The notes under the pieces: model-generated
Told to the model about the DNA's origin: nothing
The model's database searches: none
The model's input: the letters and a program-made list of their open reading frames with translations, nothing else
Origin: Shigella phage SH7
Sequence record: KX828711
Strand: one strand, 5' to 3'
Length of the DNA: 64,000 bases
Shown: positions 866 to 63,989 of the stretch, piece after piece
Layout: every line of letters starts with the position of its first letter
Numbering within the stretch: the stretch's first letter is position 1
Position numbers and translations under genes: made by a program

Positions 866-881
866 GGGACCTTCGGGTCCC
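866..881 (+). terminator. Rho-independent terminator after gene 23
   Basis: GGGACC-TTCG-GGTCCC hairpin (UUCG tetraloop) followed by T-rich tract. Confidence 0.75.
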
Positions 882-3744: not shown

Positions 3745-3813
3745 GTTATCGAGTTGATGCCATTATATACATCGTTTTCTGATTGTGTTTTGTGTGCTTT
3801 CAAAATGAAGAAA

Positions 3814-3827
3814 GGGGCCGAAGCCCC
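3814..3827 (-). terminator. Hairpin terminator downstream of hoc
   Basis: GGGGC-UUCG-GCCCC in transcript sense, 6 nt past the hoc stop. Confidence 0.6.
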
Positions 3828-3832
3828 TGAGA

Positions 3833-5703: not shown

Positions 5704-7215
5704 ATGACTGACATTAAAGTACATTTTTATGATTTTAGTCACGTGAGAATTGATTGTGAAGAAAGTACATTTCATGAACTCCGTGATTTCTTTAGCTTTG
5801 AAGCTGATGGGTATCGTTTTAATCCGAAATACAAATATGGCCACTGGGATGGACGAATCCGTCTTTTAGATTATAATCGCCTTCTTCCATTCGGCTTAGT
5901 CGGGCAAATTAAAAAGTTCTGTGATAACTTTGGCTATAAAGCCTGGATTGACCCACAAATTAACGAAAAAGAAGAATTATCAAGAAAAGATTTTGATGAA
6001 TGGCTTTCTAAATTAGAAATCTATTCAGGAAATAAAAGAATTGAACCACACTGGTATCAAAAAGATGCAGTGTTCGAAGGATTAGTTAATCGTCGTAGAA
6101 TTCTTAATCTTCCAACATCCGCCGGTAAATCTTTAATTCAAGCTTTGCTTGCACGTTATTATTTGGAAAATTATGAAGGTAAAATTCTTATCATTGTTCC
6201 AACAACTGCTTTAACAACTCAGATGGCTGATGACTTCGTTGACTATCGTTTATTCAGTCATGCAATGATAAAGAAAATCGGTGGAGGAGCATCAAAAGAT
6301 GATAAATATAAAAATGATGCACCAGTCGTTGTTGGTACATGGCAAACTGTAGTAAAACAACCAAAAGAATGGTTCTCACAGTTTGGAATGATGATGAATG
6401 ATGAATGCCATCTTGCTACAGGAAAAAGTATTTCATCTATCATATCAGGTTTAAATAACTGCATGTTCAAATTTGGTCTATCTGGTTCATTACGTGATGG
6501 CAAAGCCAATATCATGCAGTATGTTGGAATGTTTGGTGAAATATTTAAGCCAGTAACGACTTCTAAGTTAATGGAAGATGGACAAGTAACTGAGCTAAAA
6601 ATTAATAGTATTTTTCTTCGCTATCCCGATGAGTTCACTACTAAATTAAAGGGAAAAACTTATCAAGAAGAAATAAAAATTATTACGGGGCTTAGTAAAA
6701 GAAATAAATGGATCGCTAAATTAGCTATTAAGCTTGCGCAAAAAGATGAAAACGCTTTTGTCATGTTTAAACATGTATCGCATGGTAAAGCTATTTTCGA
6801 TTTAATTAAAAATGAATACGATAAAGTTTATTACGTATCAGGAGAAGTTGATACCGAAACCCGCAATATAATGAAAACCTTAGCTGAAAATGGTAAAGGA
6901 ATAATTATAGTAGCTAGTTATGGTGTATTTTCTACTGGTATTTCAGTTAAAAATCTGCATCACGTTGTTTTAGCGCACGGTGTTAAATCTAAAATTATTG
7001 TATTGCAAACAATCGGTCGTGTATTACGTAAGCATGGTTCTAAGACAATAGCAACAGTCTGGGACCTCATAGATGATTGTGGCGTTAAGCCAAAATCTGC
7101 TAATACGAAAAAGAAATATGTTCATTTGAACTATCTTTTAAAACACGGCATTGATCGTATTCAGCGCTACGCAGATGAAAAATTTAATTACGTAATGAAA
7201 ACAGTTAATTTATAA
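5704..7215 (+). CDS. uvsW: UvsW DNA/RNA helicase
   Basis: 503 aa; helicase motifs LPTSAGKS (Walker A) and MMMNDECH (DExH-type); T4 UvsW N-terminus MTDIKVHFYDFSHVRID. Confidence 0.93.
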   Translation: MTDIKVHFYDFSHVRIDCEESTFHELRDFFSFEADGYRFNPKYKYGHWDGRIRLLDYNRLLPFGLVGQIKKFCDNFGYKAWIDPQINEKEELSRKDFDEWLSKLEIYSGNKRIEPHWYQKDAVFEGLVNRRRILNLPTSAGKSLIQALLARYYLENYEGKILIIVPTTALTTQMADDFVDYRLFSHAMIKKIGGGASKDDKYKNDAPVVVGTWQTVVKQPKEWFSQFGMMMNDECHLATGKSISSIISGLNNCMFKFGLSGSLRDGKANIMQYVGMFGEIFKPVTTSKLMEDGQVTELKINSIFLRYPDEFTTKLKGKTYQEEIKIITGLSKRNKWIAKLAIKLAQKDENAFVMFKHVSHGKAIFDLIKNEYDKVYYVSGEVDTETRNIMKTLAENGKGIIIVASYGVFSTGISVKNLHHVVLAHGVKSKIIVLQTIGRVLRKHGSKTIATVWDLIDDCGVKPKSANTKKKYVHLNYLLKHGIDRIQRYADEKFNYVMKTVNL

Positions 7216-7229
7216 GGGCTTCGGCCCTT
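7214..7229 (+). terminator. Hairpin at the uvsW 3' end
   Basis: AAGGGC-TTCG-GCCCTT overlapping the uvsW stop; weak T-tract. Confidence 0.5.
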
Positions 7230-7240
7230 TGGAGAAAAAG

Positions 7241-15839: not shown

Positions 15840-15843
15840 CAAT

Positions 15844-15861
15844 GGGGACCGAAAGGTCCCC
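15844..15861 (+). terminator. Rho-independent terminator after gene 54
   Basis: GGGGACC-GAAA-GGTCCCC hairpin followed by ATATTTTTATTT. Confidence 0.75.
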
Positions 15862-15867
15862 ATATTT

Positions 15868-16165: not shown

Positions 16166-16219
16166 TCCTCATGTTATGTCAGTAAGACTACTATAACACA
16201 ACACGAGGGACTTGTAAAC
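16166..16219. repeat. 54 bp direct repeat, copy 1 (early promoter plus leader; copy 2 at 31935-31988)
   Basis: 53 of 54 nt identical to 31935-31988. Confidence 0.85.
16190..16219 (-). promoter_or_regulatory. Early promoter for the 96 aa ORF
   Basis: Minus strand GTTTAC then 18 nt then TATAGT, followed by an AGGA RBS and ATG. Confidence 0.65.
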
Positions 16220-18276
16220 TACATTTTGAACTTTTTAGACATTCCGTTAATGTTAACCAAAGAAGCTAAGATTTGAGAAACTTCGTTTTCCTCTTCTTTT
16301 GATTCTTCTACAAGGAATTGATTAAATCCAGCCATTGGACGAACTTCACCAGTTTCCATTAGATGGTCGCCATCATATACTGATTCTTCTAATTGTTCAG
16401 AAGGAGGAACGATTGTACCTTCGATTAGATACTTGTTATAAGCAGTTTCTTTCATAAAGTAAGTACTTACTTTATTAATCTTCAGTAAAATTCCACGTGG
16501 TAGAATAACTTCAGCTTCTGATGGAAATCCTGATAAATGACCCGGAACGATAACTTTAACTCGTTCAGCTCCTTTAATTACCATACCCACGCTAGTTTCA
16601 GCATCTTCATTAGCATATGTAGAATGACTACCCATATGCATCAAATCTTCTGCATCAACGGAACCTTCTCCTTCACCAGAAAATACTGCTCCGGAATCAT
16701 CTAAGGCCATATAATTTTTACCATACTCACCAAAGATATTTGGTTTAAGTGATGTAGATACGAAGTTCTTGAAATAGAACATTTTATTTTCAATGTTATG
16801 ACGCAAAGTTTTAAAAGTAACTTCTTGTCCACGGTAAAGTGTAGTTCCTGGAGGAAGAACTGAACCTTTAGCAAACGCAGAATCCATAGTCTCGATGTGC
16901 TTAATAGCGCGCTCCATGTATTCTTCACGTGTAGAATCAGGTTTACCTAAAAGGAATGAGTTCATTTCAACATACGAATCTGCACAATAATCTTCAATTA
17001 CATCAGATTCAGCCTGAGTCAATCCTTTTGGAGTTACTTCAGTGCTTGCATATTCATACGCCTGAGCAGCGGATTCATCAATTAATTTATAAATGCCATT
17101 CATGACAAATTGAATAATAGCTGTCTTTTCATCTGGCGTAGCTTTAGAACCTTTAACTAAATCATTGACAATTTTCTTAATAACATCAAAGCTATTAGAA
17201 ATATTAATGTCAGCAAGATCGCTTAAAATTTTATCAGTTTTATAATCAAAAAATTCTTTATTCTTTAAATATTCTTGAGAACTTTGATATGTTATATCGC
17301 TCTGCAACTTGATAGATGGATCACGTAAACGTGCATGGGCTAATGCAATATGACTTCGGAAGCTTTCTAGTTCATAATCACTAGATTTAAAACGAGAAGC
17401 ACTCCTCATATCACCGATAGCTCCTTTGCCGAAGTTTGAACCAATCTGAATAACGCCAGAGTTCATTGGTCCTTCTGCTTTATATACCGGAACTTTAGAT
17501 TCAAACTCTTGATATTTCTTAGCAGCAAAGCTATCACCCTGAAGTGAAGCATCAACAGTAGAATATTGAGCTTGTGCTGCTAATCGACGACTAATTTTAG
17601 TTTTCTGAATAACAGCTTGATCCGTACGCTTATCATTTTCTAAAGCAATAGAAGCAGCAACTGCGACAGCTTTAGGAACAGCATTACCTGTTTTAACGTC
17701 TACATAAACATCACCGACTTTCGATTCAACTTTTGTGAATAACTCAGTTGAAATAGGAGGTACACCTGGAATGTCTTCTAAATTGGCATTTTTACGGTAA
17801 ACCATAATATATGCATATTTCTTATCATAGTCCCAGATTTCCTTTAAAAGAACATATCGACCTGCTCCTTTAGTACGTACTAAACGGTCAGCAATAACTT
17901 GCATTTGACGAGCAGCGCCATTTGTTTTACTTTTTAGTACGCGGAATAGGCATGCATCAATTTTATACTGTTTCATTGTTTGAAGAGCAGTATCAAAAAC
18001 AGCATTAATGACGCCAATTGGATTTCCACCCAAGTTTTTAAGCTTAACTAATGATAATTTTTCATTAACACCTATCATTACGATATGCATCATTTTGTCG
18101 CCTGGCTTAACGTTTTTATTCGTATCACCGCCAGAGGTGTATGTACAAAATCTAAATCCAGGAAGCACGCTTTCTTCACCGGCTTGAATAGCAAAAATTT
18201 GTGGTATTTTATGCTTAGGATTTAAGTTAACAACCGGCGCCGAAGCGCCGTCAAATAATTCTGTAATAAGTTCCAT
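16219..18276 (-). CDS. Alt-family ADP-ribosyltransferase paralog
   Basis: 685 aa; shares MELITELFD... N-terminus and conserved blocks with the adjacent alt product; ExE-type motif SEAEVILPRG; central region diverged. Confidence 0.8.
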   Translation of the reverse strand: MELITELFDGASAPVVNLNPKHKIPQIFAIQAGEESVLPGFRFCTYTSGGDTNKNVKPGDKMMHIVMIGVNEKLSLVKLKNLGGNPIGVINAVFDTALQTMKQYKIDACLFRVLKSKTNGAARQMQVIADRLVRTKGAGRYVLLKEIWDYDKKYAYIMVYRKNANLEDIPGVPPISTELFTKVESKVGDVYVDVKTGNAVPKAVAVAASIALENDKRTDQAVIQKTKISRRLAAQAQYSTVDASLQGDSFAAKKYQEFESKVPVYKAEGPMNSGVIQIGSNFGKGAIGDMRSASRFKSSDYELESFRSHIALAHARLRDPSIKLQSDITYQSSQEYLKNKEFFDYKTDKILSDLADINISNSFDVIKKIVNDLVKGSKATPDEKTAIIQFVMNGIYKLIDESAAQAYEYASTEVTPKGLTQAESDVIEDYCADSYVEMNSFLLGKPDSTREEYMERAIKHIETMDSAFAKGSVLPPGTTLYRGQEVTFKTLRHNIENKMFYFKNFVSTSLKPNIFGEYGKNYMALDDSGAVFSGEGEGSVDAEDLMHMGSHSTYANEDAETSVGMVIKGAERVKVIVPGHLSGFPSEAEVILPRGILLKINKVSTYFMKETAYNKYLIEGTIVPPSEQLEESVYDGDHLMETGEVRPMAGFNQFLVEESKEEENEVSQILASLVNINGMSKKFKM

Positions 18277-18279
18277 GAT

Positions 18280-20340
18280 TTATCCTTGAACGAACTTGTA
18301 AGGCATGTTTGTAATATCTATGCAAGACGCAATAATTCCAAGAGATGATTCTACTTTCTGTTTAACATTTGATGAAACAAATGATGCAAAGTCAACTCTG
18401 TCTTCTATTTCAATATCACCTGTCATTGCAACCAATTCACCAGTTTCCATTAGACGGTCACCGTCATAAATGACTGATTCGGTGAGTTCTTCCGTAGTCA
18501 TAACTTCAGCTTGAATAAGCTTGTTGTTAGTTTTGACTGTTCCATCATTGTAAGATGCATCAGTTATTTTATTAACTTTGACCATTAATCCACGTGGCAA
18601 AATGACTTCCATTTCATTTGAAGGCGCTAAACTTCCGCCTGGTAAAACAACATTGACTTTATCAGCCCCAGTAATAACCCATCCAATTCCGACTAAATTA
18701 TCGCTAGAATTAACAAGCCCTTCATCATTTTTATCGATAGAAATGTTTAGACGCTTTTCATCTGGTAAAACACCAACAGCTGAATCAGTCATCCAAGTAC
18801 CAAAAATGTTTGGATATAATGATGTTGATACAAAATTTCTAAAATAAAAAACTCGATTTTTTACCAATGCTTCATATATTGAAGGTAACATTCGCTGTGA
18901 ACGATATAAAGTAATACCCTTTGGCAATCGATCACCATTTTTAAAGGCTGAATCTAAATTATCGATGGCTTGTTCTATTTCAGGTGCTGTTAAAATACTT
19001 GTACGCTCATCTGGATTATATAATCCCAAAAGAGCATTATTCATGTCTACATATCCTGAACCTACATATTCACGAATTCCGCGTTTTTGCGCTGGCGTGT
19101 ATTTAGATGAATCTTTATTTTCGACTATAGAATGCAATGACCATCCAACAGTAAGAGCATATCCACGTAATTCTCTTCGAATAATCTTTGTTTTTATTGC
19201 ATTCCAAGAATTTTGCACTAACTCATTATTCGCAGTGTCTTGATTTAAATGCGAATGCTTGTTAATATTTCTTTCTAACCAAGCACCTTTATATTTTTCT
19301 AAAGTATCATCGACTATAGAAGCAATAGTTTCTAAAGTTTTTATTGAAGTAATAGATTCTTTTCGTAATCTTTCTAAAGCTTTATTTTTTATTTCTGTAT
19401 TAACATCAGATTCTTTATCTTCAGGAATTATAGAAGCTTCTCTGAATGCCATTCCAGCTGTAACACTATTAAGAGCATTCTCTAATGCAAATCCTGAAGT
19501 AGAAATAACAGTTAATTCATTAGCATCAGAAATTAAAGGAGCGTCAGCGGGTTTATTTAATTCTGCTGCTGAAGCCTCAAATTTTTGAAACATCGGCGTT
19601 TCAAATCTAGAAGATTCCAACGACTGACTTTGTGCAATTGCTCTACGGGAAATTTTAACTTTAACGATTACAGCTTGGTCAGAACGTTTATCATTTTCTT
19701 GTGCAATAGATGCTGCAATTGCCTCATTTTTAGTTACTTGGGCTCCAGTATCTTTATTGATATAAACATCACCGACCTTCGATTCAACTTTAGTAAAGAG
19801 CTCGGTACTAATTTCCGGAACTCCTGGAATGTCTTCTAGTGATACATTTTTGCGATGTATAAGAATATATGCATACTTTTTATCATAATCCCAGAGTTCC
19901 TTAAGAAGGACGTATCTGCCACCTGAACGACTACGGATAAGTCTATCAGCAATAACTTGAATTTGTCGAGCTTGGCCAGCAGTTTTAGACTTAAGAATAC
20001 GAAGCATACAAGCATCAATTTTATACTGACGCATCGTTTGCATTGCAACAGTAAAAACTGAATTGATATAATTAATTGGGCTTGGACCAAGACCTTTTAA
20101 TTTAGCAATTGAACCTTTAGCAGTTAATGTAAAAGGAACAATATGCATCATTTTATCGCCCATTTTTAAATCGCGATTAGTATCACCTCCAGATGTATAG
20201 GTACATAAACGAAAGCCTGGTTGTTCAATTGCGTCATCGACATGAACTGAAAAAATTTGTGGTATCTTCTTCTTTGGATTTAAGTTTGTAATCGGAAGAG
20301 TAGTATCTTCGTCAAATAATTCTGTAATAAGTTCCATCAT
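18280..20340 (-). CDS. alt: Alt ADP-ribosyltransferase (virion-packaged)
   Basis: 686 aa (T4 Alt 682 aa); MELITELFDEDTTLPITNL N-terminus; NEMEVILPRG ExE motif; immediately downstream of gene 30 with own late promoter. Confidence 0.85.
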   Translation of the reverse strand: MMELITELFDEDTTLPITNLNPKKKIPQIFSVHVDDAIEQPGFRLCTYTSGGDTNRDLKMGDKMMHIVPFTLTAKGSIAKLKGLGPSPINYINSVFTVAMQTMRQYKIDACMLRILKSKTAGQARQIQVIADRLIRSRSGGRYVLLKELWDYDKKYAYILIHRKNVSLEDIPGVPEISTELFTKVESKVGDVYINKDTGAQVTKNEAIAASIAQENDKRSDQAVIVKVKISRRAIAQSQSLESSRFETPMFQKFEASAAELNKPADAPLISDANELTVISTSGFALENALNSVTAGMAFREASIIPEDKESDVNTEIKNKALERLRKESITSIKTLETIASIVDDTLEKYKGAWLERNINKHSHLNQDTANNELVQNSWNAIKTKIIRRELRGYALTVGWSLHSIVENKDSSKYTPAQKRGIREYVGSGYVDMNNALLGLYNPDERTSILTAPEIEQAIDNLDSAFKNGDRLPKGITLYRSQRMLPSIYEALVKNRVFYFRNFVSTSLYPNIFGTWMTDSAVGVLPDEKRLNISIDKNDEGLVNSSDNLVGIGWVITGADKVNVVLPGGSLAPSNEMEVILPRGLMVKVNKITDASYNDGTVKTNNKLIQAEVMTTEELTESVIYDGDRLMETGELVAMTGDIEIEDRVDFASFVSSNVKQKVESSLGIIASCIDITNMPYKFVQG

Positions 20341-20360: not shown

Positions 20361-20368
20361 TATTTATA
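20361..20368 (-). promoter_or_regulatory. Late promoter for alt
   Basis: Minus strand TATAAATA about 20 nt upstream of the alt ATG. Confidence 0.7.
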
Positions 20369-20374
20369 AAATTA

Positions 20375-20390
20375 AAGGCCCGAAGGCCTT
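20375..20390 (-). terminator. Hairpin downstream of the gene 30 operon
   Basis: AAGGCC-UUCG-GGCCUU in transcript sense, overlapping the stop of the 62 aa ORF. Confidence 0.6.
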
Positions 20391-20578
20391 TAGTAATCTA
20401 GTGGTAAGAGAGTACGATATATTTCAAACTTTGGTCCTTTTTCATAGGCATCAAATGTTTCTGTAAATTTATTGTAAGCGTATGCATCTACAAATTCGAG
20501 AATGACTTGTGATACAGAAGTAGAAACATCTCCACCTTCTTTTTGAGCAATGACAATTGTTTCTAAGTAAGCTTTCAT
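20390..20578 (-). CDS. Hypothetical protein between gene 30 and alt
   Basis: 62 aa ORF; its start overlaps the gene 30 stop (ATGA). Confidence 0.55.
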   Translation of the reverse strand: MKAYLETIVIAQKEGGDVSTSVSQVILEFVDAYAYNKFTETFDAYEKGPKFEIYRTLLPLDY

Positions 20579-24278: not shown

Positions 24279-24295
24279 AGTATTTTCCTCAGTAA

Positions 24296-24309
24296 GGGGC
24301 CGAAGCCCC
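24296..24309 (-). promoter_or_regulatory. C(UUCG)G RNA hairpin between two 30.x genes, just upstream of an RBS
   Basis: GGGGC-UUCG-GCCCC in transcript sense; no T-tract after it on the minus strand, so not a classic terminator. Confidence 0.5.
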
Positions 24310-24318
24310 TGTTTTATT

Positions 24319-25142: not shown

Positions 25143-25172
25143 AACTTTATGCAATCTTTGGAAAATAAAAAA

Positions 25173-25190
25173 GGACTCCCGAAGGAGTCC
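25173..25190 (-). terminator. Rho-independent terminator after the 58 aa basic ORF
   Basis: GGACUCC-UUCG-GGAGUCC in transcript sense followed by TTTTTTATTTT. Confidence 0.7.
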
Positions 25191-25195
25191 TCAAC

Positions 25196-33579: not shown

Positions 33580-33606
33580 AATAAAATGGGCCTTACGGCC
33601 CACTCC

Positions 33607-34785
33607 TTAAAAATATTTTTTAAAACTCATCATAACTTTATCATCAACATCATTATCAATCTGTGCAACAAGGTAAGATGACAGTTCTACTTCTTGTGGC
33701 GCGGATTGAACATTATCAGAATTAAGATATTCACGAATCCAAGGATATGGATGTTTAACCGGAGCATCGGTAATTGGGCATGGAAGACCACACTGTTTCA
33801 TACGAGATACAGTTAAGTAATCAATAAAGCTCCACATGCTATTTGTATTTAATCCAGGAACATCGCCATCTTTAAATAAATGAACTGCCCAATCTTTTTC
33901 TTGGCGGTTAACTTCCATGAAAATATCAACTGCTTCTTGTTCACACTCTTGAGCAATTTTAACCCATTCATCACCATCAGTACCGGATTGAAGTTGACGA
34001 ATAATATATTGAGTGCCTTTAAGGTGAAGCTGCTCATCACGTGCAATGAACTTCATAATCTTGGCATTACCTTCCATGATTTCCATGTTCTTATGGAAGT
34101 TAAAGGTACATGCGAAAGATACATAAAAACGAATAGCTTCTAGGGCATTAATAACGTGCAAACAGAGGTAAAGAGAACGCATTAGTTCGTATTTGCATTC
34201 TTCTACATGCATAAGGCTATTTGAATATGCGTCCAAATCATATTCATTCTCTGAAAAACACCTAAAAATTTCTTTTGCGTTTTCCCATTCACGAGTTTTC
34301 TCAATAACATCATCATAATAACGACCAATAGATTCAGCACGTTTCATGATAGCTTTATCTAATACAATCTCATCAAATACCTTCGATGGATCAGTATAAA
34401 GATTTCGCATGATATGTGTATATGAACGGCTGTGAATAGTTTCACTAAAAGTCCACGTAGCAACCCATGTATCAAGGCTCGGGTCTGAAATTAATGACAT
34501 AAGTACAGCAGACGGTGCACGACCCTGAATGCTATCCAAAAGTGATTGATACTTCAGGTTATTAGTAAAAATATTTTGCTGATACTGAGGAAGCTTATTA
34601 AACTGTGCAGCATCCATCATTAAGTTTACTTCTTCAGGACGCCAGAAAAATGATAATTGCTTTTCGGTCAAATCTTCAAAAACTTTATGGCGTTGAATAT
34701 CATAACGCGCAATACCAAGACCTGAACCGAAGAACATAGGTTCTTTTAAAACATCAACTGGATTTGTATTAAAAACTGTAGACAT
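33607..34785 (-). CDS. nrdB: Ribonucleotide reductase small subunit NrdB (intronless)
   Basis: Continuous 392 codons from MSTVFNTNPV; di-iron ligand motifs present; no interruption where T4 carries its group I intron. Confidence 0.93.
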   Translation of the reverse strand: MSTVFNTNPVDVLKEPMFFGSGLGIARYDIQRHKVFEDLTEKQLSFFWRPEEVNLMMDAAQFNKLPQYQQNIFTNNLKYQSLLDSIQGRAPSAVLMSLISDPSLDTWVATWTFSETIHSRSYTHIMRNLYTDPSKVFDEIVLDKAIMKRAESIGRYYDDVIEKTREWENAKEIFRCFSENEYDLDAYSNSLMHVEECKYELMRSLYLCLHVINALEAIRFYVSFACTFNFHKNMEIMEGNAKIMKFIARDEQLHLKGTQYIIRQLQSGTDGDEWVKIAQECEQEAVDIFMEVNRQEKDWAVHLFKDGDVPGLNTNSMWSFIDYLTVSRMKQCGLPCPITDAPVKHPYPWIREYLNSDNVQSAPQEVELSSYLVAQIDNDVDDKVMMSFKKYF

Positions 34786-35516
34786 TAATTTTTCCTCTTT
34801 AAAATTCTGCCGTGTTTCCAACCTGGCGGTATAATATCATCTTTACCTATAAGCGTGCATTCACTTCCATTATTAATCCATTTCTTACCGCGGATTCCTT
34901 TATAATCTCTTGGTTTTATTTTGTCAAACTTTGCATCAAGTTGATATGACCATCTAAATCCATAAGCATATTGAAATTTACCCTCGGCACAATATTTGAT
35001 ATTTGACCCGTTTCCATTAACTGACCGGGACGCTGCCGCAATAGAGTGAAAGGTTTCTATGAAATCCCCATCTAATGAGAATTTATGTATTTCTACAGAT
35101 GGGCACGCATATCTATTCACGTTAGATACATGCTGTTTAGTTTCGTTTTTATGATGCTTGCCTAGCATCCCTTTAGGATGAGGATTATTTTTCCAATATT
35201 TCTTAAAGAACTCAGAATTAGCTTTAGCAAATAATTTTCTGTGTAAGCTGTACAATCTGTTATTAATTCTATTGCCAGCTTTATCTGTTGCCATTAACGT
35301 TAACGCAGAGGCAAGACCAAAATGACCTTCATTTATCTTACATAGTAATAGATGAGCTATAAAATGTTCTCTGGCTGTTAATTCAACTAAATTTTCCTTA
35401 TCATCAGAACCTCCCATACATTTAGGGATTATATGATGTGTCTCTTTATATTCTAGTAAAGATTCCCGAGCCTGAGCTCGGGAAATTAGGTCGTTATAGA
35501 TTTTTTGATAATTCAT
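34785..35516 (-). CDS. HNH homing-type endonuclease (MobE-like position)
   Basis: 243 aa; HNH motif HHIIPKCMGGSDDKENLVELTAREHFIAH; start and stop each overlap the neighbour by 1 nt (TAATG at both ends). Confidence 0.8.
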   Translation of the reverse strand: MNYQKIYNDLISRAQARESLLEYKETHHIIPKCMGGSDDKENLVELTAREHFIAHLLLCKINEGHFGLASALTLMATDKAGNRINNRLYSLHRKLFAKANSEFFKKYWKNNPHPKGMLGKHHKNETKQHVSNVNRYACPSVEIHKFSLDGDFIETFHSIAAASRSVNGNGSNIKYCAEGKFQYAYGFRWSYQLDAKFDKIKPRDYKGIRGKKWINNGSECTLIGKDDIIPPGWKHGRILKRKN

Positions 35517-38337: not shown

Positions 38338-39198
38338 TTACACCGCCATCTTTCCTTTAATTGGCGGGTGAGATACATAGTTTTTAAGAACAAAATCATG
38401 TGGCTTTGCGAATTGACTCAACCAAAATACCTGCGATTCTGTGTTCCATTCATCAAATTCATCTGGAAATTTTAATTGTAATTCGCATAAATCCATAGGT
38501 TCACGACGCAAAATTTCTTTACATTGTTCTACGTGATTCATATAGATATGAGTATTACCACCAGAAAATATCAAATCTCCTGGAATAAGATTACACATCT
38601 TAGCTACAATATGAACTAACGTAGCATATGATGCAATATTAAATGGAAGACCGAGGAAAACATCTACCGAACGTTGATACCACTGCAAATCCAAATAGCC
38701 ATTACGCACATTAAACTGATAGAACATATGACAAGGTGGTAATGCCATATATTTAAGTTCAGCTGGATTCCATGCAGAAACAATTTGACGCCTATCATTT
38801 GGTAGTTTTTTAATACGATCAACAACTTCTATAATTTGGTCTACACCACCAAAATCGCGCCATTGTTTTCCATAAATTGGACCAAGTTCACCACTATGGT
38901 ATCCTAAATCTTTTGCTTGATTTTCGTAATTTTCATCCCAGACTGTTTTGCCTTGAATTAATGAATCATGTTGAATTAATCGCAAATCATTGACATTTGT
39001 GCTTCCCGATAAAAACCATATTAGCTCAGCAATGCAAGCTTTCCAGGCGAGCTTCTTAGTCGTTACTGCAGGAAAACCTTTAGTTAAATCCCAGCGCAAT
39101 TTAGTACCGAACAAAGCAATTGTTCCTGTGCCTGTTCGGTCATCGGTTTCATAGCCATTTTCCAGGATATCTTTAATTAAAAATTGGTATTGTTTCAT
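38338..39198 (-). CDS. td: Thymidylate synthase (intronless)
   Basis: 286 aa from MKQYQFLIKDI as in T4 TS; uninterrupted reading frame; catalytic segment ALPPCHMFYQF. Confidence 0.93.
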   Translation of the reverse strand: MKQYQFLIKDILENGYETDDRTGTGTIALFGTKLRWDLTKGFPAVTTKKLAWKACIAELIWFLSGSTNVNDLRLIQHDSLIQGKTVWDENYENQAKDLGYHSGELGPIYGKQWRDFGGVDQIIEVVDRIKKLPNDRRQIVSAWNPAELKYMALPPCHMFYQFNVRNGYLDLQWYQRSVDVFLGLPFNIASYATLVHIVAKMCNLIPGDLIFSGGNTHIYMNHVEQCKEILRREPMDLCELQLKFPDEFDEWNTESQVFWLSQFAKPHDFVLKNYVSHPPIKGKMAV

Positions 39199-49948: not shown

Positions 49949-49953
49949 ATTGA

Positions 49954-49971
49954 GGGAGCCTTCGGGTTCCC
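49954..49971 (+). terminator. Hairpin terminator after gene 35
   Basis: GGGAGCC-TTCG-GGTTCCC followed by TTTTTCTTT. Confidence 0.65.
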
Positions 49972-49979
49972 TTTTTCTT

Positions 49980-49987
49980 TATAAATA
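49980..49987 (+). promoter_or_regulatory. Late promoter for genes 36-37-38
   Basis: TATAAATA 23 nt upstream of the gene 36 ATG. Confidence 0.75.
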
Positions 49988-53987: not shown

Positions 53988-53991
53988 TAAG

Positions 53992-54007
53992 AGGGGCTTC
54001 GGCCCCT
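53992..54007 (+). promoter_or_regulatory. C(UUCG)G hairpin between genes 37 and 38, next to the gene 38 RBS
   Basis: AGGGGC-TTCG-GCCCCT directly after the gene 37 stop; no T-tract; GGAGG RBS follows. Confidence 0.5.
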
Positions 54008-54018
54008 TGGAGGTTTAT

Positions 54019-58299: not shown

Positions 58300-58329
58300 C
58301 GTTTTGTGAAAAAATTTTTGAAATAAAAA

Positions 58330-58349
58330 GGGAGAGCCAAGGCTCTCCC
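58330..58349 (-). terminator. Rho-independent terminator after the gene 52 operon
   Basis: GGGAGAGCC/GGCTCTCCC 9 bp stem followed on the minus strand by TTTTTATTT. Confidence 0.7.
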
Positions 58350-58354
58350 TAAAA

Positions 58355-60125: not shown

Positions 60126-60132
60126 ATTTTCC

Positions 60133-60213
60133 TCACTGGCGTCCGAAGACGCCTTTAGTTTTAAGATTATTACGATAGAACTGCATCACGTGTTCGTTGT
60201 GGAAATTACTCAT
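60133..60213 (-). CDS. stp: Stp peptide (activator of host PrrC anticodon nuclease)
   Basis: 26 aa [29 protein letters not shown] matching T4 Stp; start overlaps the ndd stop (TAATG); absent from ORF track because of size. Confidence 0.8.
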
Positions 60214-61968: not shown

Positions 61969-62526
61969 TTAAATGGAAAGATACCATCCGTTGTAGTTGC
62001 TTTTTCTTACAACCTTACGAAGGTCTTCTCTGTCACCGATGAACTTCGGAGTGTACTGGATGACACCTGGATGAATTTCTTTAGTGTTGAATATAATTAT
62101 ACAGTCAGCGACTTGATGATTTAGAATGGGTCCTAGATTTATTCCAGAACCGTATGGATACTCTCCGCTGCATCCTGTTGTTACAGAAATCCAACGTGAG
62201 TCAGTTTGGTGTGTCTTAACTTCTACACGAAGCCCGCAGTATCTTGGATGCGCCAATACATCCCATGCGTATGTATACGGGTCATTAACATCTTCTTGAC
62301 CTTTATTGACATATCCGCTTAGCCAATCTGCCACAAAAAACTCTGCGTACACAGCGATACGGCATCTTTCGATAACTTCTGCTTTATCCTGGTTCGGGTT
62401 TTGTTTTAAAGAGTATCTTGCTGTATCAGCAATTTTGACCTTCATTTCACTAGTCAAGTCACTGTTCGATAGGGTAAATGTCGGAATCTGAAATAGTCTC
62501 TGTAAACCCGGATTCGTTTTCTGCAT
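61969..62526 (-). CDS. denB: Endonuclease IV (DenB)
   Basis: 185 aa as in T4 DenB; lies between rIIB and ndd. Confidence 0.9.
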   Translation of the reverse strand: MQKTNPGLQRLFQIPTFTLSNSDLTSEMKVKIADTARYSLKQNPNQDKAEVIERCRIAVYAEFFVADWLSGYVNKGQEDVNDPYTYAWDVLAHPRYCGLRVEVKTHQTDSRWISVTTGCSGEYPYGSGINLGPILNHQVADCIIIFNTKEIHPGVIQYTPKFIGDREDLRKVVRKSNYNGWYLSI

Positions 62527-62788
62527 TTAGACTTTCCTTTTTACCGCTAAGATAGGCGTTATATACTTTAAGAGTGCCATAATAAATTCGGTCATTTTCA
62601 TCTAAAGACTCGCGGTCGAGTTCATCGAGCTCCTTTTTATCCATGACTATAACATCATTACAGTAAAGAAACCCAAGTTTTTCATGCCCAAACTCGAATT
62701 TATTGCAGTACACAATATTAGCGTAATGATTACCATGTAGAGAAATTTCTTTTATGTCGGTGTCACCGATATTCATACAATAAATCAT
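62459..62788 (-). CDS. Hypothetical protein (denB-upstream ORF)
   Basis: Start trimmed to the ATG at 62788 (MIYCMNIGDTDIK...) behind the RBS AAGGAAAATT; 109 aa. Confidence 0.55.
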   Translation of the reverse strand: MIYCMNIGDTDIKEISLHGNHYANIVYCNKFEFGHEKLGFLYCNDVIVMDKKELDELDRESLDENDRIYYGTLKVYNAYLSGKKESLNAENESGFTETISDSDIYPIEQ

Positions 62789-62806
62789 AATTTTCCTTAA
62801 AACAAA

Positions 62807-62820
62807 AGGGCCGAAGCCCT
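62807..62820 (-). terminator. C(UUCG)G hairpin terminator
   Basis: AGGGC-UUCG-GCCCU in transcript sense followed by TTTTGTTTT. Confidence 0.55.
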
Positions 62821-62823
62821 CTT

Positions 62824-63018: not shown

Positions 63019-63050
63019 AATTTTCCTTAATGTGATAAGGGCCAAAGCCC

Positions 63051-63989
63051 TTATTTAAATTGTTCAGTAACGTCTTCAACTACTTCGTATTGGCAGGTAC
63101 GCATTTTAGCGTCGTTGTAATCAATCGGAATTGATACTACATCGCGAGGATGTACTTTAACTTTTACAACTCGACTAGTTGAACTGCCAAAGTGACGAAT
63201 ATAAGATTTAGAACACACATGCAGACCACGAGAACAAGTTTGTGTATCATCGTCATTCACACGAGTACGTGGCATTTTAACTACTTTACCCGGACTGTTA
63301 TCAAAGGTATTTGAGTGACAGTCAAAGTAATTGCTGCGAACTACTTTCCAAGCATAGAAGTAGCCATCTTCTGTAATTTCAATATCGTTTGCTACCAAGA
63401 AATCAAAGAGTCGAGATACCGCTTTTTGGCTTGGGTTTTCCAACAGATTTTCCAAGAACGGAAAATAAAATTCAAAGTTTTCGCCTTTTTCCATCGAGTC
63501 AAGAATACGATCAACTAAACCAGATCGCAATTCAATATTTTGATAGAACAAGCTTCCACCTTCAATTCGAACATCGCCGGAAATATATTTTTCAACAGCG
63601 CGACGAACATTAATTTTTTGTGCAGCTTCTTCCAGCTTATCTGCTACAAGCAGATTAAGAATTTCCTGGAAGTTTGAATGAGTATTAGGAGTTGCGTTAT
63701 AAGTTACACCGTCAACAGTAATTGAAATGAATTTTTTAGAAGCATTCCAAATAATATCAGATTTAGCAACTGGAGCAATAGCTACATCGCTATTAACTTT
63801 AACTGTAATGTCACCGCTAATAGTAACTGTAGAGCGTTCTGCTTCTTCAGCATTTTTCAAAACACGACGGATTGTGTCAACCGATACACCTTGCCAATCA
63901 GCCAATTCCTGTTGAGTGTAATTACCACTTGAATATAGTTTAACAATTTCAGCTTGTTCGTTTTTGGTCAGGCATTTAATATTGTACAT
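63051..63989 (-). CDS. rIIB: rIIB rapid-lysis protein
   Basis: 312 aa as in T4 rIIB; terminal gene of the T4 map on this side. Confidence 0.9.
   Translation of the reverse strand: MYNIKCLTKNEQAEIVKLYSSGNYTQQELADWQGVSVDTIRRVLKNAEEAERSTVTISGDITVKVNSDVAIAPVAKSDIIWNASKKFISITVDGVTYNATPNTHSNFQEILNLLVADKLEEAAQKINVRRAVEKYISGDVRIEGGSLFYQNIELRSGLVDRILDSMEKGENFEFYFPFLENLLENPSQKAVSRLFDFLVANDIEITEDGYFYAWKVVRSNYFDCHSNTFDNSPGKVVKMPRTRVNDDDTQTCSRGLHVCSKSYIRHFGSSTSRVVKVKVHPRDVVSIPIDYNDAKMRTCQYEVVEDVTEQFK

Follow-up and report, generated by a model that had tools for sequence, protein, structure and literature searches.

C(UUCG)G tetraloop hairpins of the T4 type at gene boundaries in Shigella phage SH7

We analysed a window of 64,000 nucleotides from Shigella phage SH7 (KX828711), which has a G+C content of about 35% and is 94-97% identical to Tequatrovirus (T4-like) genomes over long stretches. 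The gene order of T4 is kept, from the 3' end of gene 23 through gene 24, hoc, uvsW, the baseplate genes, alt, gene 30, the nrd/td/frd block, gene 32, the tail-fibre genes 34-38, motA, gene 52, stp and denB to rIIB, and the window, judged by its sequence, belongs to a Tequatrovirus closely related to T4. According to a crude map of open reading frames, from which stp is missing, 93-94% of the window is coding and about 6% is non-coding. The copy of the T4 RefSeq record that we used contained no annotated regulatory features, and a search of the whole window against Rfam at the gathering score yielded 0 matches, so that no curated family covers the hairpins described below.

Short hairpins with a UUCG loop closed by a C-G pair recur in this window. 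By extending stems around every TTCG, we identified 11 C(UUCG)G hairpins of at least 5 bp, as compared to 0.28 on average, and never more than 3, in 300 dinucleotide shuffles; at one orthologous site the loop is C(UUUG)G. A preliminary description had listed at least nine C(UUCG)G hairpins, all of which were recovered at their coordinates as the cores of longer full stems, as was a tenth with a different loop, now read as UUUG. The nine are thus real, and two more, at 18235-18250 and 60138-60153 on the minus strand, had escaped it. Its statement that they are intergenic applies to 9 of the 11, which are located strictly within the ~6% of non-coding sequence, since 60138 covers the last codons of stp and 18235 covers codons 9-14 of the second alt paralogue. 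The stems are 6-9 bp long, with predicted free energies of -8.8 to -14.9 kcal/mol, and a core of GGGC-UUYG-GCCC is common to 6 of the 12 hairpins. The hexamer CTTCGG is found 28 times in the window, versus 13.7 +/- 3.3 times in shuffled sequences. All 10 copies outside the crude map of reading frames form hairpins, compared with 1 of the 18 copies inside, the other 17 being 7 in sense and 10 in antisense. For comparison, we collected every tetraloop hairpin with a perfect stem of 5 bp or more that included 3 or more G-C pairs. The count by loop was 12/13 for TTCG/CGAA and at most 4 for every other loop, and UUCG is the dominant tetraloop of the window.

Five of the hairpins, which we refer to as class A, combine a stem with a U-rich tail. 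The hairpin at 864-883 on the plus strand (named hereafter, like the others, by its first coordinate) reads AAGGGACC-UUCG-GGUCCCUU and is located 13 nt past the stop codon of gene 23, with the tail UAGUUGUUUUUA and the late promoter TATAAATA for gene 24 on its 3' side at 899-906. At 3813-3828 on the minus strand, 4 nt past the hoc stop codon, AGGGGC-UUCG-GCCCCU is followed by UUCUUCAUUUUG; the same stem is used again at 24295 and 53991. Also on the minus strand, the hairpin at 20373-20392 (UAAAGGCC-UUCG-GGCCUUUA, tail AUUUUAUAAAUA) overlaps the alt.1 stop codon, and the late promoter TATAAATA for alt (20361-20368) begins 4 nt beyond its stem, while the hairpin at 25171-25192 (GAGGACUCC-UUCG-GGAGUCCUU, tail UUUUAUUUUCC) lies 3 nt past the stop codon of a 30.9-like reading frame, with an early-promoter-like TTTACA-17-TAGTAT downstream at 25141-25113. 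The fifth, at 49952-49973 on the plus strand (GAGGGAGCC-UUCG-GGUUCCCUU, tail UUUCUUUAUAAAUA), is located 3 nt past the gene 35 stop codon and is followed by the late promoter TATAAATA for gene 36 at 49980-49987; two G-U pairs in its stem give the sense form a stability advantage of 5.8 kcal/mol over the antisense form. The T4 late-promoter motif TATAAATA is thus found 4-15 nt beyond three class A hairpins (864, 20373 and 49952). The hairpin at 62804-62823 on the minus strand (AAGAGGGC-UUCG-GCCCUUUU), directly past the denB.1 stop codon, is a borderline member of the class: its core, GGGC-UUCG-GCCC, is followed by UUUUGUUUUA, AAGGA (62794-62798) and an ATG (62788), and it combines terminator-like features, among them a partly embedded U-tract (GCCCUUUUGUUUUA), with those of a hairpin adjacent to a ribosome-binding site (RBS).

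An independent pattern scan of the sense strand flagged 864, 3813, 20373, 25171 and 49952 as terminator-like and raised no such flag at 7214, 18235, 24295, 53991, 60138, 62804 or 63035, in agreement with the split into terminators and non-terminators made in the preliminary description, apart from two changes of membership: 7214 joins the RBS-adjacent hairpins, and 62804 has features of both kinds. Terminators have been predicted after gene 23 and between genes 35 and 36 in all six T4-like genomes compared by Nolan et al. 2006 (PMC1524935), and upstream of alt in 5 of the 6 (PMC1524935); these published sites coincide with those of 864, 49952 and 20373. Five hairpins, or six with 62804, thus look like intrinsic terminators as far as sequence can tell, with 864 the predicted terminator of gene 23, and intrinsic termination is the best-supported reading of class A, given its anatomy, its conservation and the published prediction. 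The U-tracts are imperfect at 864 and at 20373 (AUUUUAUAAA), so termination at these two sites may be partial.

A second group of hairpins, class B, has no U-tract, with 1-5 U in the next 10 nt at 7214, 24295, 53991, 60138, 63035 and 18235, too few for an intrinsic terminator. All of these except 18235 end 0-6 nt 5' of a Shine-Dalgarno (SD) sequence, a placement that had been described for 24295, 53991 and 63035 and is confirmed there. The hairpin at 7214-7229 (plus strand; AAGGGC-UUCG-GCCCUU) overlaps the uvsW stop codon and is followed by GGAG (7231-7234) and the ATG of uvsW.1 (7241), and the one at 24295-24310 (minus strand; AGGGGC-UUCG-GCCCCU), between 30.7 and 30.6, by GAGG (24287-24290) and an ATG (24278). 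Located 3 nt past the gene 37 stop codon, the hairpin at 53991-54008 (plus strand; GAGGGGC-UUCG-GCCCCUU) precedes GGAGG (54009-54013) and the ATG of gene 38 (54019). The stem at 60138-60153 (minus strand; GGCGUC-UUCG-GACGCC) encodes the final residues (GVFGR) of the 26-aa Stp peptide, upstream of GAGG (60131-60134) and the ATG of ac (60125), and the hairpin with the C(UUUG)G loop, at 63035-63054 on the minus strand, overlaps the rIIB stop codon upstream of AAGGA (63024-63028) and the ATG of denB.1 (63018). The 10-nt tails of 7214 (UGGAGAAAAA), 24295 (UACUGAGGAA), 53991 (GGAGGUUUAU) and 60138 (AGUGAGGAAA) contain 1-4 U. The hairpin at 18235-18250 (minus strand; CGGCGC-UUCG-GCGCCG) has an all-G/C stem and is positioned inside the second alt paralogue, 29 nt past the stop codon of the first alt gene. 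We also considered whether class B hairpins could be 5'-terminal structures of transcripts from a nearby promoter and rejected this, as neither TATAAATA nor a good sigma-70 match was found just upstream of 7214, 24295, 53991 or 63035. In a related contig, the 30.6 hairpin is preceded, at a distance of about 25 nt, by an early-promoter-like -10 element.

Hairpins with other loops are found at further boundaries. Between the convergent genes 24 and rnlB, the hairpin at 2221-2242 is terminator-like on both strands, with a GAAA loop on the plus strand and UUUC on the minus strand, and between the convergent genes 54 and alt.-3 there is one at 15842-15863 with a GAAA loop on the plus strand and the tail AUUUUUAUUU. 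A terminator-type hairpin with a CUUG loop and the tail UUUUAUUU is located upstream of motA (58329-58350, minus strand), with an early-promoter-like TTTACA-17-TACTAT downstream. At this site the RB69 loop reads CGAA in sense, that is, this RB69 terminator has the loop reversed, and UUCG is therefore preferred and not obligatory. Lastly, an RBS-adjacent hairpin between nrdB and denA (33583-33606, minus strand), with an ATG 3 nt past the stem, has the GNRA loop GUAA in the window, GCAA in T4 and UUCG in RB69.

Several observations place these structures in the RNA. At all 11 sites the UUCG loop has the same sense as the genes beside it (binomial p = 0.001), as the preliminary description had it for the hairpins that it listed. 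Stabilities predicted with ViennaRNA were higher for the sense than for the antisense RNA at 12 of 12 sites, by 0.9-5.8 kcal/mol, and four of the stems contain G-U pairs, the antisense equivalents of which are A-C mismatches. The hairpins are genuine, and selection acts on them as RNA. At orthologous sites the UUCG loop is exchanged for GAAA, GCAA or UACG, and these swaps indicate selection for a stable cap and not for a sequence recognised by a protein. The target of selection is therefore a stably capped helix, for which UUCG is the favoured cap and others occur.

For each hairpin site in the window, 62804 included, an orthologous site was found at the corresponding gene boundary of T4 (NC_000866), the 37/38 boundary being a special case. 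T4 has a similar CUUCGG hairpin here, AGAGGGGC-UUCG-GCCCUUCU followed by AAAUAUG, but it precedes a non-homologous gene 38, whereas gene 38 in the window is of the T2/RB69 type. The 3813 hairpin is identical in T4 and RB69, 53991 in RB69 and 60138 in T4, and the sequence of 18235 is identical in T4 alt.-1. Differences from T4 were observed at 30.7/30.6, where the loop is UUCG in the window and UUCA in the T4 reference, and at rIIB/denB.1, where the different loop noted at 63035 has U in place of the C of UUCG, the loop of this site in both T4 and RB69. The RB69 orthologue of this site has the tail UUUUUUCUUU.

In RB69, C(UUCG)G is kept at orthologous sites while the stems differ by compensated changes. 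The gene 23 stem is AAGGGACC/GGUCCCUU in the window, AGGGAACC/GGUUCCCU in T4 and UGGGAGAC/GUCUCCCA in RB69, and the alt.1/alt stem is AAAGGCC/GGCCUUU in the window and T4 and AAGAGCC/GGCUCUU in RB69, which amounts to two compensatory pair changes. Compensated stem changes were likewise observed at the 30.9/30.8 and 35/36 sites; at the 25171 site RB69 and the window share the loop, and their stems are unrelated. The sequence GGGAGAC-UUCG-GUCUCCC is repeated at four boundaries in RB69, and this repetition, like the shared GGGC-UUYG-GCCC core in the window, gives a hint of the spread of small modules. General homogenisation of stems within genomes, at which RB69 also hints, was considered and rejected, since the gene 23 and 35/36 hairpins were identical to each other in just 2 of the 16 contigs with both sites.

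Three sites were followed into more distant phages. For gene 23, the comparison included 69 distinct sequences from phages with 40-100% identity in the C-terminal part of gp23. A downstream hairpin of -10 kcal/mol or lower was present in all 69 relatives (range -10 to -20, mean -15.7), as compared to an average of -2.3 kcal/mol in shuffled sequences, 0.4% of which reached -10, and at least 5 U were found in the next 10 nt in 56 of the 69. There were 23 different loop-proximal 5' arms, and the loop was C(UUCG)G in 35 relatives, C(GCAA)G in 9, C(UACG)G in 7 and C(GAAA)G in 2, the rest being miscellaneous. At the 35/36 site, the hairpin, the U-tract and TATAAATA were retained down to 40% identity in gp36, and the loops among gp36 relatives of 40-100% identity were UUCG, UUUG, GAAA, GCAA and UUAU. 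Thirteen phages retained the 30.7/30.6 hairpin; in each of them it lies 2-5 nt 5' of GAGG and lacks a U-tract, and two of them have GAAA in place of UUCG. Covariation was counted here in a flank-anchored alignment of the 5-bp helix from the 13 phages. In this alignment 98.5% of the positions were paired, with compensatory changes from G-C to A-U at two positions; none of 500 shuffles reached the observed score, and slid registers were 31-68% paired. The uvsW/uvsW.1 hairpin (7214), for its part, was found only in Tequatrovirus and RB69-like phages. In more distant T4-like phages with both genes, uvsW is joined directly to GAGG-ATG without a hairpin, and the hairpin is therefore dispensable for expressing uvsW.1. 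At least one class B hairpin is thus, by this comparison, a lineage-specific addition.

We consider it highly probable that these are intercistronic hairpins of the T4 C(UUCG)G type, which act in the mRNA and not in the DNA and form two working classes. Their existence, their excess over chance, their sense orientation, their placement at boundaries, their orthology with T4 and their compensated conservation were all computed directly. In both classes the element would be a short G/C-rich helix capped by the unusually stable UUCG tetraloop. Class A (864, 3813, 20373, 25171, 49952 and, marginally, 62804) would provide rho-independent termination at the ends of transcription units, usually with a new late (TATAAATA) or early-type promoter next, and, once at the 3' end of the transcript, the hairpin would also protect it from 3' exonucleases. 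The class B hairpins (7214, 24295, 53991, 60138 and 63035, with 18235 just inside a reading frame) would not terminate transcription; their most likely role may be that of structural punctuation within polycistronic mRNA. Following an endonucleolytic cut in the downstream A/U-rich or GGAG-containing initiation region, the hairpin could serve as a barrier to 3' exonucleases and stabilise the upstream cistron, and at some sites it might also tune initiation at the adjoining RBS, as in the case of the published T4 gene 38 hairpin. It is termination, nuclease protection and any translational effect that we infer. Class B itself consists of conserved RNA helices.

Canonical intrinsic termination requires a U-rich tract. 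That all of the hairpins nevertheless terminate transcription or cause strong pausing, those next to an RBS being leaky attenuators that lower transcript dosage along the operons, is suggested by the use of the same stems and loops as in clear terminators (AGGGGC-UUCG-GCCCCU at 3813, 24295 and 53991), by the union of a partial U-tract with an RBS at 62804, and by the tail of the RB69 orthologue of 63035. However, the tails of 7214, 24295, 53991 and 60138 are U-poor and these sites were not flagged by the scan, and at 30.7/30.6 the missing U-tract is a conserved feature of the 13 phages, for which reason termination at class B is unlikely and we find this explanation quite doubtful. Control of downstream translation as the main role of the RBS-adjacent hairpins, whether by keeping the SD free of long-range pairing or by coupling or uncoupling to upstream termination, is a more plausible proposal, if still a fairly unlikely one. 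The distance to the SD is short and fixed (0-6 nt), the upstream stop codon lies within or beside the stem, and the spacing between hairpin and SD is conserved across phages; there is also the precedent of the enhancer hairpins of T4 genes 38 and 25 (PMC3014915). We calculated partition-function accessibilities of the initiation region for wild-type sequences, hairpin deletions and arm mutants. The changes in the deletion comparison at six sites were +0.13, -0.04, +0.20, -0.06, +0.19 and +0.01, without a consistent direction: predicted accessibility was higher with the hairpin at 3 of the 6 sites, which favours insulation of the RBS, but flat or lower at the other 3, which does not. Distant T4-like phages, moreover, express uvsW.1 from a compact stop-SD-ATG junction without a hairpin, and in the window the GGAGG of gene 38 is 3' of the hairpin and already at a normal spacing of 5 nt from the AUG, so the split-SD mechanism is inapplicable here.

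Transcription from the opposite strand offers another reading, in which the RBS-adjacent hairpins terminate antisense transcripts that enter these genes. The scan flagged 24295, 53992, 60138 and 62807 as terminator-like in antisense, where the loop reads CGAA and the tail is T-rich; these flags arise because A-rich sequence precedes the hairpins in sense, and a genome of 35% G+C will have such sequence past stop codons in any case. No antisense flag was raised at 7214 or 63035, stability favours the sense RNA at every site, and we regard this reading as very improbable because UUCG is strictly sense-oriented and the G-U pairs are formed in sense only. The same asymmetry argues against DNA-level elements, be they cruciforms, recombination hot-spots or dispersed copied repeats with an incidental RNA structure, given that a palindrome has no strand sense. 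The shared core in 6 of 12 hairpins and the fourfold RB69 repeat would fit copied repeats, as would the proposed role of PeSL cassettes in mediating shuffling in T4-like phages (PMC4122927, PMC2839356). Yet stems are substituted in a compensatory manner at fixed orthologous sites, similarity stops at the hairpin edges, and the gene 23 and 35/36 hairpins are rarely identical to each other, which leaves very little room for this explanation. We also think it unlikely that the U-tract-less hairpins are a lineage-specific punctuation of Tequatrovirus and Mosigvirus, absent in other T4-like phages, that is gained and lost, sets the stability of neighbouring cistrons and perhaps spreads or is homogenised as small modules. 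We retain the T4-type intercistronic hairpin in its two working classes as the preferred interpretation. In the literature searched, we found no studies of T4 by 3'-end sequencing (Term-seq).

C(UUCG)G hairpins were reportedly first recognised in the intercistronic regions of T4 in 1988 and later became the textbook example of a stable RNA tetraloop. The T4 CUUCGG hairpins are attributed to Tuerk et al. 1988 (PNAS 85:1364) in PMC8948821 and PMC2811024. With reference to that study, the former states that many phages commonly have sequences of the type (X)2-8CUUCGG(Y)2-8, most of them intergenic, and lists varied functions. Intergenic stem-loops of T4, terminators included, often contain the UUCG tetraloop, and GGAG motifs inside such stem-loops resist cleavage by RegB (PMC1702504). 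The hairpin of T4 gene 38 enhances initiation by shortening the distance between SD and AUG (PMC3014915). The roles proposed for class B in stability, processing and translation match those given to such hairpins in this literature (PMC8948821, PMC3014915). In T4-like phages, cassettes of a terminator stem-loop and an early promoter are known as PeSLs (Arbiol 2010, PMC2839356; Comeau 2014, PMC4122927).

Compared with the T4 hairpins, those of the window have the same motif, (X)n-C(UUCG)G-(Y)n, in the same type of genome, with the same mostly intercistronic placement and at the same physical sites, and there is no substantive difference other than that the window comes from a different Tequatrovirus isolate. 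With intrinsic terminators they share the G/C-rich hairpin and U-rich tail just past a stop codon, but about half of them, the U-tract-less hairpins at 7214, 24295, 53991, 60138, 63035 and 18235, are not assignable to this type. The split-SD enhancers of T4 genes 38 and 25 are alike in having a stable hairpin within the translation initiation region; the 53991 hairpin, however, is positioned 5' of a normally spaced SD, and neither here nor at the other class B sites does the hairpin lie between SD and AUG. PeSLs are repeated composite cassettes that flank variable reading frames in hyperplastic regions. In the window, 25171-25113 and 58350-58270 resemble them in having a stem-loop directly followed by a putative early promoter, but most hairpins, unlike PeSLs, precede a late promoter or an RBS and keep fixed positions between conserved genes. 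In bacterial operons, the REP hairpin of E. coli malE-malF is regarded as an intercistronic stabiliser that blocks 3' exonucleases and gives differential stability within one transcript. As a stable non-terminator stem-loop between cistrons, it provides the working model for class B, although REP sequences are longer, imperfect, host-encoded and protein-bound repeats and the hairpins of the window are minimal tetraloop hairpins of 14-22 nt.

The phenomenon is thus the long-known CUUCGG hairpin system of T4: the hairpins are those described in T4 in 1988, and the observation is therefore correct and not new. Its significance as a discovery is small, and the terminator sites had already been predicted to be conserved in T4-like genomes (PMC1524935). 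The main use of the hairpins is in annotation: they mark the ends of transcription units in this phage, they show which boundary hairpins are not to be annotated as terminators, and they flag deviations of the old T4 reference exactly at these G/C hairpins.

Several of the G/C hairpins at gene boundaries coincide with the exact places where the T4 RefSeq sequence differs from both the window and RB69. Such deviations were located at the uvsW-uvsW.1 boundary (L003:8780-8800 in the T4 sequence pieces), at the 30.7-30.6 boundary (L003:23860-23885), where the loop is UUCA in T4 RefSeq, and at two further loci (L004:12317-12346 and L004:12540-12565). A single base is missing from one stem arm at the uvsW-uvsW.1, denB.1-denB and rIIB-denB.1 boundaries, and the T4 record still contains a single fused uvsW ORF of 587 aa, annotated with a note on "sequence discrepancies", where resequencing has identified two ORFs (PMC1524935). 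These deviations look like old gel-compression errors.

In RB69, four gene boundaries carry the near-identical hairpin (A/U)GGGAGAC-UUCG-GUCUCCC(U/A) (L005:7234-7253, L005:30140-30159, L005:44032-44051 and L006:2519-2540), and the stems of T4 and the window are different at three of the four; at the remaining one they have a hairpin with a UUAU loop. Similarly, the gene 23 and 35-36 hairpins were identical within two IMG/VR contigs (L036/L085 and L043/L084), which was not the case in 14 others. The RB69 terminator upstream of motA (L006:10927-10944) has a palindromic stem with the loop in reverse, and reads AGGGAGC-CGAA-GCUCCCU followed by UUUGUGCAUUUUUUU in the sense of the genes. It breaks the rule that UUCG lies in the sense of the flanking genes; at the corresponding site in the window (58329-58350) the loop is CUUG. 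At both convergent gene ends of the window there are hairpins of the GGGACC-GAAA-GGUCCC type with T-rich tails (2221-2242 between gene 24 and rnlB; 15842-15863 between gene 54 and alt.-3), the loop of which is GNRA rather than UUCG on the late (+) strand. Hairpin 2221-2242 has a T-rich tail on each strand and looks like a bidirectional terminator.

The window also differs from T4 in gene content (884-933, 34785-35516 and 38338-39198). The segD gene between genes 23 and 24 in T4 is absent, and a 243-aa ORF is found between nrdA and nrdB instead of nrdB.1 and mobE. Since no Rfam group I intron match was obtained in the window, td and nrdB appear to be intron-less, as they are in AR1 and RB69. 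Where T4 has alt and the remnants alt.-1 and alt.-2, the window encodes two full-length Alt-like ADP-ribosyltransferase paralogs in tandem (16219-18276 and 18280-20340, both on the (-) strand). Codons 9-14 of the downstream paralog contain an all-G/C CUUCGG hairpin (18235-18250), the sequence of which is identical in T4 alt.-1. The denB.1-denB interval is an 82-nt gap with no annotated gene in T4, while in the window about 280 nt is taken up by a 109-aa ORF (62459-62788, (-) strand) with the start AAGGA-N6-ATG directly 3' of hairpin 62804.

In a pattern scan, four hairpins adjacent to ribosome-binding sites scored as terminator-like on the opposite strand (24295-24310, 53992-54007, 60138-60153 and 62807-62820) because A-rich sequence lies 5' of them in the sense direction; in principle, they might terminate antisense transcripts as well. 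The 3' end of the 26-aa stp gene (60133-60213, (-) strand) falls within a CUUCGG hairpin that encodes the Stp residues GVFGR. Peptide sequence and RNA structure constrain one another here.
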